This document shows, piece after piece, positions 14,595 to 56,269 of a stretch of 64,000 nucleotides of DNA. Under the pieces are notes generated by a model. The model saw nothing but the letters and a program-made list of their open reading frames with translations, did not search any database and was not told the origin of the DNA. How positions within the stretch are numbered: the first letter of the stretch is position 1; every line of letters begins with the position of its first letter. The position numbers and the translations under genes were made by a program. The DNA is taken from NCBI GenBank assembly GCA_964016885.1, contig OZ024750.1:16244001-16308000 (forward strand). Reading direction: 5' to 3'. This stretch comes from Eledone cirrhosa. Lineage: Eukaryota.

Positions 14595-14729
14595 AACGAA
14601 GGAAAAGTGGTAAGGAACCAGGTGGACCATAACGCACCAAAGTACTCAATACTTGAGGTAGTAGAGTGGGTAATAGGAACCAGTAAGACCCCGACAGCTG
14701 AGCTCAAGCCGTTTCGACGGCTAATTCTG
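14595..14729 (-). mobile_element. Family B (TA)n-targeted insert carrying the 3' half of a hammerhead
   Basis: Reverse complement has gtc-GAAA-cggct..agctg-TC-ggggtc followed by the tail. One of nine copies in the window. Confidence 0.85.
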
Positions 14730-14810
14730 TATATATATATATATATATCTAATACTATATATATATATATATATATATATATAGTAGTTCCACAACAGTT
14801 AGTTCACCAT

Positions 14811-14851
14811 ACCGAGAACAAATGTTTCACCTTGCAGATCATCAGCTCGGT
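14811..14851 (-). ncRNA. Minimal type I hammerhead within the 5'-inverted insert 14783-14917
   Basis: accgag-CTGATGA-tctgcaaggt-GAAA-catttg-TT-ctcggt. Confidence 0.82.
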
Positions 14852-15829
14852 CTGCCAAACTCGTCCCATGGACTGAGTGCTCTACTACTACAGATATAAC
14901 CCTCCAGTGTTCTACTATTATATATATATATATATATATGTGTGTGTGTGTGTGTGTGTGTGTGTGTGAATGGATAGACTGATGTTTTTCTGGTTTTATT
15001 ATTTTATTATTTTCACCAATAAGAGAGAGAGAGAGAGAGAGAGAGAGAGAGAGAGAGAGAGAGAGAGAGAGAGAGAGAGAGAGAGAGTGTGTGTGTGTGT
15101 CTGTCTGTGTGTCTATATGAATGTAAATTTTTCTTTGAGATTTAAGTTTTTCGCCAACCACTATATGTACATATATGAATATATATATATATATATATAT
15201 ATATATATATATATATATATATATATATATATATATATATATATATGTATATATATATACATATATATGAATGTACGTATGTGTATGTATGTATATATAT
15301 GTGTGTATATATATATATATATATATATATATATATATACAAATATATATGTGTATGTATGTATGTATGTATGTATGTATGTATGTATGTACAGTGAACT
15401 TCTTCGCCAGACATGAATGAAGCAAAGTATATAGTACATCTCAAGTGGTTGTCGTTTTGTCTTTGACTATAGTGCCGGACTAAACGTACTTGACATTTTA
15501 AACGGAAGAATCTTTGGAAAGGTCAAACTTCATCAAATAACATTTGTCAGTGACCAATGTTTCCACAACAAATTCTCCATGACATTCTCGCCTGTCAATG
15601 GATAGGAATAACGTCATCTGGTTACATAAGTCTTATTTATATATTATTTAGGCGGTGAAATGGCAGTTCGTTAGGACGTTGAGTAATACCGCAGCCACAA
15701 TCAAACAATGTTGCTTTCAATTTGTGGGATTTTTTTGGCGTATCTTCTCATTACATATTTTCCAATCAAAGCAATAAGAATACGCGTGTATATGAATATA
15801 TATCGGGTGCCTCTGACAATAAAAATAAT

Positions 15830-16445
15830 AATTGTTTCTACTTTTGGCACAAGGCCAGCAATTATTCCAGTGCATTACTGGTGCTTTATTTTATCGACCC
15901 CTTAAGGATGAAAGGCAAAGTTAACCTCGGCTGGATCTGAACTCAGATCGCAAAGGGACGTAACTCTATGCTGCAAAGCATGACATCCGGCTCTCCACCT
16001 ACCGACACTGCCAACCCACCGCCTTTGCCTCTGACAATAATGGTTTCTTATATAGGCACATGGCCAGCAATTTTGGGGGACTGGAAAGTCGATTAAATCG
16101 ACCCCAGTACATTACTGGTACTTTATTTTATCGACCCCGTAAGAATGAAAGGCAAAGTTAACCTCGGTGGGAGTTGAACATAAAGAGGCATAACTCTATG
16201 CTGCAAAACATGGTGTCTGACGCTCTACCGATGATTTCTACTATAGGCACAAGGCCAGCATTTTTAGGGTAGGGGCCAGTCAATTCAATCGACCCCAGTG
16301 GATTACTGGTGCTTTATTTATCAACCCCGTGAGGATGAAAGGCAAAGCAAATCTCGGCGGGATTTGAACTCAGAACATAAAGGGCCGTAACTCTATAACG
16401 CGAAGCATAGTGTCTGATGCTCTACCGATACTGCCAATCCATCCT
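15830..16445 (-). mobile_element. Three tandem tRNA-derived SINEs (dominant family)
   Basis: Reverse complement shows A-box tggcagtatcggtag, B-box gttcaaatcc and core gcctttcatccttacggggtcgataaa. Confidence 0.88.
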
Positions 16446-16651
16446 CCACATGTGGTTGATCTCTATTTCTAGGACTTTATACTTTGACAGTGTTTCTATC
16501 GATTTACAGATGTATTCTTGACAGCTGGTACTGTAATATCTATCAGGCTACATGTCTTATCTGTTTATTTGGGTTTTTTGTTTGTGATATCTGGTCTGTT
16601 GGCAGCAATTTCTCGGTCAGTTTTCACAGGCTTATCCTGGATATGTTACCA

Positions 16652-17690
16652 TGATCAGAAACTGTTTGCTAAAACTGAGAAGGCACTAAACCAGCGGTCA
16701 TCAACCTTTCGGACCTCATGGACCACTAAATCCTGTGGACCACTAATAAGAATTAAAAAAAAAAGATAAATACATTTGTAAAATAATTGTTTCTACATTT
16801 GGCACAAGGCCAGCAATTACCCAGTGTATTACTGGTACTTTATTTTATCGACCCCTTAAGGATGAAAGGCAAAGTTAACCTCGGCAGGATTTGAACTCAG
16901 AATGGCAAGGACCGTAACTCTATATTTTATAAAACAATACTGAAGCGTACGTGTGTCATATTGTCGATAGATGATAAATATGTGTAAAATTATTTCATGG
17001 GTGTTAGTTCTTTACTGAGGAGAAACACTTTTTAGGGGTTTCGTAAAATATATTTTAACTAAATATTATTTTTGTTTTATTATTAATAAAACACAAAAAT
17101 TGCAAATAATGTGCAAATTTTTCTGCGGATAACCAAAGTTTTCTCTCGGACCACGAGTTGGCGACCGCTGCACTAGGCTAATTAGTCAAAACGGTAAAAT
17201 TAGTGAGCTATGATATAGGAATGCAATTTGGAATAAATAAATGTGCAAGGCTAATACTTAAGGGAGGGAAAATAATAACGTGTAAAGGTACAGAGCTACC
17301 TGAGGATACAGTGATCAATGTGATGAGGGGAGTGAAAGTTCCACGTACCCAGAGGCAGATAAAATACTGTGTGAAGAGATGAAAGAAAAAGTGAGGAAAT
17401 AATATTTTAGGAGAATAAAGAAATTAAAAACTTAATTGAGGAAAAAGTATCGCAGCAATTAATTAATACCTGGACAGTATCTCTATTGAGGTACTCTGCT
17501 GTATTCTTGAATTGGTAAAGAGGAAAACAGAAACAGACTGACAGAAAAGACTATGACGATGTAGAGAGGATTGCATCCAAGAGATGGTCTCATAGATTAT
17601 ATCAGCTATATCTACCAAGGAAAAAGTAGAGTTAATTCCCTTAGAAGATTGGATTTATGTGGTAGAATGTAACCCAGAGAAATATGTGAT
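16652..17690 (+). mobile_element. Degenerate R4/Dong-like LINE RT fragment interrupted by a hAT MITE
   Basis: DQKLFAKTEKAL / DIGMQFGINKCARLILKGGK...INTWTVSLLRYSA...GLHPR. Confidence 0.8.
16692..17170. mobile_element. hAT-type MITE containing a SINE (16785-16921)
   Basis: TIRs cagcggtcatcaac / gttggcgaccgctg; 8-bp TSD cactaaac / cactaggc. Confidence 0.8.
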
Positions 17691-53862: not shown

Positions 53863-54652
53863 TTACTGTTATTGGCATTGTTTTTGCTACTATTGTCTGG
53901 CGCTAGGCGTGGATTTGGATGTTATTTCTAGTACCTCATAGAGGCACCTTTGGTGACTCGTTGAAGCCGTTGTTTTGTCTTTTGTTGTTTTTTATAGCCA
54001 TATGTTTGATTTGGCTGCTATTTCTAGCAAGACGAGTGATTATATGGAAGCACGCTTGTTGGCTTCTGGTAATTCTAATTGTATAGTACAAGTTCAGATT
54101 TGGCTTCTATCTCTAGCTAGCATAGTGACCTCATAGAATGTCACTCATTAGCTCATGGTATCTCACGTTCTTTGGAGCTCAGTCATGACCATCTTGTCTG
54201 TTTACCTATGTGCGAGGAACCCACGATCATATTTTTCCGACACGTTCATATTTTAAGAGTAATTTGAAGGAGGTCTGCTAATTCTAGCAAAATGAGTGAC
54301 CTCATAGAACCTTCCTCGTTGGCTTATGGCTGCTGCTGTTGTTTAGCCCCAAGTTAACCATATTCGAGCAAACCTATTAACCCCATTTTATTTTTCAATA
54401 TATTTACGCTTGTAAGTATTAATATAACATTATTGCAAGTTAGAACTACAAGAGTAAAAACTCGAGTATAGTAATGTAAGACAAACAACCTAAACAACAG
54501 TTTACACATTTCCCTTATATTTCATGATATTTTAGGATTTAAAAAAAAGAACTTTTTCAAAAGAAATGAAATGCACTCTTGTATTGTACCGACTTTCCAC
54601 AAACAATCATATAAACTATATTGTTTACCGTATAACATTTTTTTCTTTCCAG

Positions 54653-54682
54653 ATTGTGATAGATCTATGCATGTTGATAAAT
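54653..54682 (+). CDS. Coding exon 2 (30-nt microexon, DCDRSMHVDK)
   Basis: ttttctttccAG acceptor, GTAAGT donor; phase 1-1 is compatible with both neighbours. Confidence 0.7.
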
Positions 54683-55488
54683 GTAAGTATTTTGTCTTCT
54701 TAAATTTTGGGAGTAACTTATCTAAAAGAGTCTGGTGGTTATAGTGTTGAGCTCACGATCGTAAAGTTGAGAGTTCGATTCGTGAACCGAGCGATGTGTT
54801 TTGTCCTTGAGCAAGTCACTATATTTCACGTTGAAAATATGAATTGTGATGTTACCGGTGCCAAGCAGTATAAGCTTTGTCTTTCCTTTGGACAATATTA
54901 ACTGTAGTTTAAATAATGTGTATATAGTCTATATATAATGTATATTGTTACGAAGGAAATTGTAAAGTCAATCATCAGCTGCAAATGGTATCACTCGAAT
55001 TTGAAATACTGCTCCCCAGATCTACAAAAGAAAGCGATGACATGTTACGTCCGTCAGCGGGGTACTGTATTTCACGTTACCCAGGCCACTGGAGAAATGA
55101 GTTGGGGCATCAGTGATGTATATATATATATATATATATATATATATATATATACATCAGTGATGTATATATATATATATATATATATATATAAGTAGAA
55201 GGGTATTTAATTTGTTGTTAATTTGTATTTAATTCTCTTGTTTCTTTCTTCTCTCTCTAGCATTATTTTATCCTCTCCTCCTATCTCTTCTCTCTCTCTC
55301 TCTCTCTCTCTCTCTCTCTCTCTCCATACTCGTTTAAATAAATGGTTGTTTTTCAATTATTTACATATTCATTTGCATATTCACACATAAGTTTGAAAAA
55401 TCCCTAATATATTTCCACTATCCAGTGAATTTCCAGCCGATAAGGTATGATTTTCATGGTATGTCTCTATTTATAAAACAAACTTTGT

Positions 55489-55549
55489 ATTTTACCTGAT
55501 GAAAGCGTACCAATCTGTCTTGGTACACTTGAAATATATATAATAAAAT
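55489..55549 (+). ncRNA. Type I hammerhead (family F), intronic and sense to the host gene
   Basis: attttac-CTGATGA-aagcgtaccaa..ttggtacactt-GAAA-tatata-TA-ataaaat; the downstream 45 nt match the reverse complement of 41500-41545. Confidence 0.82.
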
Positions 55550-55897
55550 AAATATGGTTTTATAAATATAGTTTCCATTTATTTAATATCATTGTATATA
55601 TATATATATATATATATATATATATATATATATATATATATATATATGTAGATAAATCTACAAGAGTTTACGGTAGTGTCCAATATATATGTGTCCATAT
55701 ATGTGTTTTGGTATGTATATTTAATTTTGATAGTTTGTATAATTTTGTATAATTTTGTACATAGATCTGTTGAATATGCATGCCAATTCTAACACATATA
55801 TATCCTAGAAACGATCGTTAAATAATGAACTTTTTTTGTTAATATAAGGAACTGCTTCATTGTTTTATTCATTATTTTTTTAATATTTTATATATAT

Positions 55898-56269
55898 AAC
55901 GAAGGAAATGTGTAAGGAACCAGGTGGACCATAACGCACCAAAGTACTCAATACTTAGGGTAGTAGAGTGGGTAATAGGAACAAGTAAGACCCCGACGGC
56001 TGAGCTCAAGCCGTTTCGACGGCTAATTCAGTCCAGAATTAGCCATCGAAACGGCTTGAGCTCAGCCGTCGGGGTCTTACTTGTTCCTATATATATATAT
56101 ATATATAGGAGTAAGTAAGACCCCGACGGCTGAGCTCAAGCCGTTTCGACGGCTAATTCTGGAGCTCAGCCGTCGGGTCTTACTTACTCCTATTACCCAC
56201 TCTACTACCCTAAGTATTGAGTACTTGGTGCGTTATGGTCCACCTGGTTCCTTACCACTTTTCCCTCGC
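55898..56269. mobile_element. Two adjacent family B fold-back inserts (55898-56090 and 56105-56269) in intron 2 of the chitin-binding gene
   Basis: Each has an inverted arm ending at cctat plus one tailed arm; they are separated by (TA)n. Confidence 0.85.

Follow-up and report, generated by a model that had tools for sequence, protein, structure and literature searches.

A short repeat of Eledone cirrhosa, very probably of Penelope-like origin, with a common 5' limit at a half-hammerhead motif

Naiad, Neptune and related Penelope-like elements (PLEs; Craig et al. 2021, PMC8557442) are inserted as 5'-truncated copies with an inverted 5' copy and tail-like alternative 3' ends, favor (TA)n targets and leave abundant short 3' ends. 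PLE start sites and an internal promoter lie in the pseudo-long terminal repeat, or pLTR (PMC2377424, PMC8557442). For PAc, a Poseidon element of Anolis (Frangieh et al. 2024, PMC11167929), purified protein introduces nicks into both strands of AT-rich DNA, and its reverse transcriptase (RT) starts internally at two sites on uncleaved RNA. How PLEs make inverted, tailed insertions, and what role their hammerhead ribozymes play, are treated as open in PMC8557442 and PMC11167929. Here we describe family B, an element of about 140 nucleotides (nt) in a 64-kb stretch of Eledone cirrhosa DNA (contig OZ024750.1, positions 16,244,001 to 16,308,000; hereafter the window). The window is AT-rich DNA of animal type, rich in microsatellites and interspersed repeats. 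What is new is that the 5' limit is sharp and lies inside a half-hammerhead, and that one insertion joins arms of two families; the remainder is mostly known PLE biology.

A BLASTN search of the window with a reference copy finds 14 family B arms, which make up nine insertions from 14596 to 56268 (Table 1); one further arm of 9 nt, at 41758-41766, was read by eye. Element positions 1-140 follow the reference copy at 20070-20209 on the minus strand, where the A of AGTCC is position 3, GAAA occupies 21-24 and the predicted hammerhead cut falls after C43. The long arms are 89-99% alike, and insertions 1 and 2 reach 99%. An earlier note on this DNA had counted nine copies, a number that holds, although the units are insertions, six of them with two B arms.

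The 3' ends of the arms fall at three fixed sites (about 61-63, 125 and 140), each right after TTCCT and each running into TA. Every insertion abuts (TA)n at its 3' end, and the TA run behind the long arm measures 10-95 nt in all nine, in a window of which TA runs make up 11%. Six insertions are head-to-head inverted B pairs, five of them formed by a short arm ending near 62 and a long arm, the sixth having the 9-nt second arm. Two insertions are single-armed. The last, at 37998-38290, is a two-template inverted insertion: a family B arm and a family C arm, each bordered by (TA)n on its outer side, meet head to head at a microhomology of 2 nt.

Like PLEs, family B thus has 5'-truncated copies with an inverted 5' copy, alternative fixed 3' ends and a bias for (TA)n, and we are confident that its origin is of PLE type. 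This is known PLE-end anatomy, likely the pLTR end of a Penelope-like retroelement. In the window, no open reading frame (ORF) with RT plus GIY-YIG and no partial tandem pLTR is linked to family B, nor does the family resemble the Penelope-type element found there. Family B differs from the Naiad and Neptune types (PMC8557442) in having a sharp 5' limit common to arms from different starts, alternative 3' ends 15 and 77 nt apart instead of 30-40, and no linked ORF. PAc (PMC11167929) shows several features that we propose for family B: more than one internal RT start (in PAc, some 85-100 nt 3' of where the hammerhead cuts), the extension of both target strands and the use of uncleaved RNA. Its hammerhead, however, is whole, protein-assisted and overlaps the ORF start, whereas family B has neither CUGANGA nor a linked ORF. 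Two-arm inverted insertions joined by microhomology are also the product of LINE-1 twin priming (PMC2837659), but in family B the second priming site is fixed, the arms overlap by 9-54 nt and one pair consists of two families.

The furthest 5' points of the nine insertions are 7, 1-3, 3-4, 3-7, -9 to -7, 6-8, 3, 5-7 and 82, where ranges reflect junction microhomology. Eight of the nine thus lie within a 16-nt span, which confirms the earlier claim of a limit shared by eight of nine within about 15 nt. Under a truncation null with exponential arm lengths and two start sites, run at four different mean lengths, 0-1 of 200,000 trials per setting matched this clustering. Positions 3-8 are reached by every one of the five short arms; the long arms paired with them end at 9, 12, ~31, 44 and ~55, and two or three arms terminate on the same base, A3. 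Because arms that start 77 nt apart end at the same coordinate, both in the window and in public DNA runs, the limit is set by sequence and not by length. A truncated master copy with a common flank is not indicated, since the upstream flanks vary among copies.

The sequence at the limit partly matches core promoter motifs. TT-A-GTC agrees at five of six positions with the initiator (Inr) of Drosophila, with A at +1 (consensus from PMC5580651), and a motif ten element (MTE) is matched at 6 of 10 positions at exactly +18..+27. An Inr and MTE of this quality occur together at 39 of 76,589 background positions.

Public sequence data extend this picture. Fourteen of 24 listed runs contain the element, nine with at least half of the ten words, across ten studies; none is recorded as RNA. 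Runs X10-X14, with fewer than five words, were left out, and four runs were analyzed: X1, X2, X5 and X24. X1 may be the source of the window DNA, and X24 is a raw restriction-site-associated DNA sequencing run with the species label of X3-X5. Matching sequences number 41 contigs in X1, one contig in X2, 18,765 contigs in X5 and 22,957 reads in X24. Among 15 of 17 joints listed for X5 and X24, 10 of the 11 that join opposite strands have one side at positions 0-16, seven of them at 0-6. The sides near the limit (3, 6, 4, 0, 16, 13, 9, 4, 3 and 4, among the joints listed) repeat the window pattern. At the short-arm end, (TA)n loose ends occur in 3410 reads of X24 and 77 contigs of X5. A second subfamily in the runs, like the copy at 27554, retains GAAA, stem III and the palindromic loop. 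These statements cover the loose ends and variants listed; a further 360 loose ends and 29 variants lie outside them. Contig depth, which drops toward either end of the reference, played no part in placing the limit. At 20200, 7179 read ends of X24 could be taken for a 5' end, but they coincide with an AATT site at 20197-20200 and were treated as a likely restriction or library cut. Because these reads end at AATT, the X24 reads that reach position 0 are enriched for a subfamily without that site.

Some sequences in the runs continue past position 0. Loose ends of one contig in X1 and 62 contigs in X5 (agreement 0.58) form one common upstream extension, whose first 9 nt are also present in the window copy at 38140-38148; a search of the window for the extension motif, allowing up to three mismatches, found no copy. 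The extension pairs with positions 8-17 in a duplex of -10.0 kcal/mol, and the common limit falls inside the 10-nt loop. This hairpin has only about 10 bp and contains a bulge.

Just downstream of the limit, eight of the nine insertions carry C-GAAA (20-24), a stem III of 4-6 bp closed by a palindromic loop, and GUC (41-43) followed by GGGG(UC); the ninth, at 41699, begins at position 82, 3' of the motif. CTGANGA is present in none of the nine on either strand, and the three 7-mers within one mismatch of it are not in a usable context. The observation that the C-GAAA..GUC half is present and CUGANGA never is therefore stands. Minimal type I PLE hammerheads (Cervera and de la Pena 2014, PMC4209133) likewise have C-GAAA, an A-U closing pair, a palindromic loop 3 and GUC near the element end, whereas family B lacks CUGANGA and the stem I partner and has a long stem III (5-6 bp). 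Rfam reports no hammerhead at the 20070 copy with E up to 10; among 150 of 347 matches listed for the window, the sole hammerhead is at 39489, in another family. Stem III has a pairing probability of 0.12-0.40 in three truncated copies, and in the copy at 55899 a hairpin that buries GAAA reaches 0.39 against 0.32 for stem III. CGAAA hairpins of a similar kind occur at several unrelated sites in the window.

As it stands, family B is not a hammerhead: the CUGANGA block is missing. The earlier note had read the motif as the 3' half of a hammerhead and proposed looking for CTGANGA upstream in longer copies. Such copies exist in the public runs as the upstream extension, but the 30 nt of it that were covered, which reach to about 58 nt from GAAA, contain neither CUGANGA nor a partner for GGGGUC. 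As for a stem II closed by a G10.1-C11.1 pair, the extension pairs with positions 8-17 and not with 18-20, and the bases 5' of the 5' arm of its hairpin are unpaired with the GUC preceding GAAA. A 3' half remains plausible from the motif and from the analogy with family C. The gacggctaa/ttagccgtc pairing noted earlier at 27033 belongs to an inverted duplication of about 57 bp of the element on itself and gives no evidence for stem II.

Half cores have been described before. Eight Naiads, two of them from cephalopods, are marked 'HHR_half_core' in PMC8557442. By eye, the hammerhead blocks in the 3' ends of Naiad_Obim and Naiad_Ovul in its supplement begin with the cut site, followed by GAAA and then CUGAUGA; stem I has 6 bp, stem III has 5 bp, and stem II is weak. 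This order resembles the non-circular type SGC of PMC10085705; the authors of PMC8557442 marked only Ovul, as a half core. We rejected non-circular permutations (PMC10085705) for family B, which has no CUGANGA block.

We favor a model, to which we assign a probability of about one half, in which the template RNA is predicted to begin at the 5' limit, inside a hammerhead-derived domain. By analogy with the PLE literature, a PLE RT-endonuclease, acting in cis or in trans, would nick (TA)n, and complementary DNA (cDNA) would start internally at the 3'-end sites. Priming from both target strands would produce the inverted pairs, and in the B-C chimera the two strands may have used different RNAs. 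The cDNA would run off at the RNA 5' end, the start site of a putative internal promoter at A3, and the copies would be comparable to strong-stop cDNAs made on the 5' leader of the element or on a short non-autonomous transcript. Such an RNA, lacking the CUGANGA half, would not cleave itself and would let cDNAs traverse the GUC site; most family B copies do run through the predicted cut. Copies that extend further upstream would come from read-through transcripts. The fixed limit agrees to this extent with the earlier proposal of a defined RNA of about 150 nt.

Several observations weigh against a start at A3. The Inr and MTE matches are post hoc and use a Drosophila consensus, and the downstream promoter element is matched at only three of five positions. 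The clean junction at 56030 lacks an extra cap-derived G. Many X24 molecules pass A3: most reads that get beyond the AATT site continue to position 0, where 813 of a depth of 1298 end, and the loose ends of 676 X24 reads at position 0 are of mixed sequence (consensus agreement 0.42). No ORF-bearing parent of family B was found in the window, and in family C the core or loop II is the place of breakage in two of five insertions, which favors fall-off at domain II. We consider it doubtful that family B goes further and constitutes a self-propagating, Penelope-dependent non-autonomous retroposon of about 140 nt, with an internal RNA polymerase II start inside hammerhead loop II, the CGAAA core reused as a downstream promoter element, and a disarmed half-ribozyme that avoids cutting itself and for which longer members could provide the CUGANGA half in trans.

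A structural cause of the limit is possible, and we keep it as the main, though tentative, alternative. Here the template, also of PLE origin, would be long, with a full pLTR and a complete or extended hammerhead, and the structure of domain II would set the ends, through RT fall-off or through fold-back of a cDNA hairpin and nicking of its loop. The hairpin around the limit and the conserved extension upstream of it fit such a template, as do the two family C breaks, at loop II (38147) and in the core (42622), and one family K arm that ends 10 nt upstream of its own core. However, a plain stall would be expected at the 3' foot of the hairpin (positions 17-20), whereas the ends lie in the loop and recur on A3, and the hairpin itself is short and bulged. 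Family D traverses its whole ribozyme and then stops at a common site further up: four arms of two insertions share a 5' limit within 13 nt. Because that limit sits 55-67 nt upstream of an intact core, common 5' limits need no stem II. This alternative is an altered form of the earlier suggestion of an RT stop at a GC-rich stem II, which is still live, given the family C breaks, although the limit is beyond the 3' arm of the hairpin.

Compatible with either account of the limit is the idea that GAAA-hairpin-GUC is a chance or promoter-related motif and no ribozyme remnant, and that the PLE-type end around it, like those of Naiads, was always without a canonical hammerhead. The missing CUGANGA and stem I partner, the lack of pairing between the bases before the hairpin's 5' arm and GUC, the GAAA-burying hairpin that is as probable as stem III, the similar hairpins elsewhere and the silence of Rfam all point this way. 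We nevertheless think it unlikely: the short 3' end lies 20 nt and the long one 97 nt from the predicted cut, in parallel with about 29 and 115 nt in family C, which has the whole fold; stem III and its palindromic loop are kept in the second subfamily; and such a loop 3 is typical of PLE hammerheads (PMC4209133). Less probable still is trans cleavage, a version of the earlier proposal, in which a defined non-autonomous RNA of about 140 nt would supply the substrate to a natural two-piece hammerhead and a second RNA would cut it. The fixed limit, the intact GAAA, stem III and GUC, and the long arm at 43376, which begins at the predicted cut (44-46), would suit it. Yet none of 28 exact CTGANGA sites in the window pairs over more than 3 bp with GGGGUC, and of 394 cores with one mismatch, five get no further than 4+3 bp even when wobbles count. 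Moreover, only one of 14 arms begins at the cut, read depth shows no step there, and the freed AGCCGUC strand would compete with stem III, so cleavage by a partner finds no backing. We give least credence to a miniature inverted-repeat transposable element (MITE) or other DNA-type element, or a tRNA-derived short interspersed element (SINE), with a TA target. Shortness, inverted arms and TA on both sides are what such an element would have, but the variable inner junctions largely refute it, the outer ends of a pair are unequal (~62 against 140 or 125), two insertions are single-armed and a third is joined to an arm of a different family. Searches for tRNA genes and tRNA-like sequence gave no match, where a degenerate head could escape.

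In line with this, the identical, fixed terminal inverted repeats of a MITE were not found, nor was the tRNA-like head of a tRNA-derived SINE, though a degenerate one might be missed. Metazoan non-LTR retrozymes (PMC7229834; bioRxiv 10.64898/2026.07.22.740005) are, like family B, short, non-coding and likely mobilized by PLEs; they are, however, tandem units with complete type I hammerheads, whereas family B is dispersed and inverted and never tandem in the window. With no tandem copy and no complete hammerhead core, this identity was rejected. A coding origin was also rejected: the antisense frame has no match among longer proteins, and the sense frame has one weak match (E 7e-4), to a tandem-repeat ORF. 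When family B was compared with eight window sequences in both orientations, only family C beat its shuffles (21 against a maximum of 20; one of 16 tests, in the opposite sense), which we take as chance. Exact family B patterns were absent from metagenome contigs, viral contigs and prokaryote genomes. The family B motifs searched have no match in the consensus set of the PMC8557442 supplement, where line breaks can hide matches, or in the supplement of the Octopus vulgaris repeat paper (PMC13282606), where line breaks can do the same and whose separate library on Zenodo may contain family B. The literature searched, with incomplete coverage, holds no account of the family.

Table 1. Family B insertions and other elements of the window (window coordinates; element positions follow the reference copy)
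Feature	Coordinates	Strand	Remarks
Insertion 1, single long arm	14596-14729	-	positions 7-140; (TA)n on both sides
Insertion 2 (reference), single long arm	20070-20207	-	positions 3-140; 1-2 ambiguous with T10 run
Half-hammerhead motif of reference	20167-20190	-	C-GAAA, stem III with palindromic loop, GUC; predicted cut 20167/20166
Insertion 3, short inverted arm	27033-27089	-	positions 3 to ~61
Insertion 3, long arm	27088-27217	+	positions ~12-140
Insertion 4 (diverged subfamily), long arm	27482-27550	-	positions ~54-57 to 125
Insertion 4, short arm	27554-27612	+	positions 3-7 to ~62
Insertion 5, long arm	37998-38148	-	~10 nt beyond the common limit, into the upstream extension of the public runs
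Family C arm fused head-to-head to insertion 5	38147-38290	+	2-nt microhomology; truncated in its own loop II; 3' end on (TA)n
Insertion 6	41699-41766	-	long arm 41699-41757 (positions 82-140) plus 9-nt inverted arm ending at 125 (by eye)
Insertion 7, long arm	43376-43471	-	positions 44-46 to 139; begins at predicted cut site
Insertion 7, short arm	43470-43524	+	positions 6-8 to ~61
Insertion 8, long arm	55899-56029	-	positions 9-140
Insertion 8, short arm	56030-56087	+	begins exactly at position 3; blunt junction, no extra G
Insertion 9, short arm	56108-56163	-	positions 5-7 to ~61; TA tract common with insertion 8
Insertion 9, long arm	56159-56268	+	positions ~31-139
Family C	38361-38619, 38147-38290, 38679-38868, 42584-42693, 59828-60155		
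Family D	1104-1509, 10514-10913, 45431-45516		inverted two-arm insertions, complete hammerheads, long stem II
Families E and F	38960-39836, 39868-40352, 50732-51133, 37472-37638		retrozyme-like units, type I hammerhead
Single type I hammerhead	14783-14900	-	core at 14845
Penelope-type element	30604-34941		2168-bp inverted repeat; also delimited as 30563-34941
pLTR-only inverted copy	29282-29877		related to the Penelope-type element
SINE-like family	18 loci, 8406-58929		some tandem
Mobile-element coding-like fragments	2305-2502, 8900-9363, 14227-14318, 62426-62860		frames of ~145 codons, no Pfam match

Other elements of the window carry whole ribozymes. Family C has a complete type I hammerhead fold, with the core CAGAAGA (U4 to A), a PLE-like end and the same short-arm/long-arm layout as family B; one of its two insertions broken in the core or loop II has a 14-nt duplication there. 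Family F repeats after 466 nt, the Rfam match to HH9 at 39489 lies below the gathering score, and an octamer, ATGCAAAT, stands upstream in families E and F. The single type I hammerhead beside insertion 1 lies in a short TA-ended element, and a perfect TCAGTC precedes its core by about 30 nt.

The two halves of the Penelope-type element are 100% identical, and this inverted repeat is either a very recent insertion or an assembly artefact. Its RT frame of 464 codons is matched by Pfam RVT_1 with E 8e-4, below the cut-off, and by Atlas clusters at 0.91, and a GIY-YIG-like frame was seen by eye; a search of PDB with this RT gave no match. The SINE-like family is abundant and presumably resembles the SINEs of octopods.

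Taken together, these observations suggest that priming takes place on the two target strands, perhaps with a different RNA for each, and that the templates used are mostly those that escape cleavage by the ribozyme. Family B is young and has thousands of copies, three fixed RT starts, one fixed stop and chimeric arms across families, which makes it a natural data set for the insertion mechanism of PLEs. If the stop is only RT fall-off, family B would be a well-marked but ordinary PLE remnant. If it is a start site inside the ribozyme, family B would show how SINE-like parasites could arise from PLE ends in a simple way.

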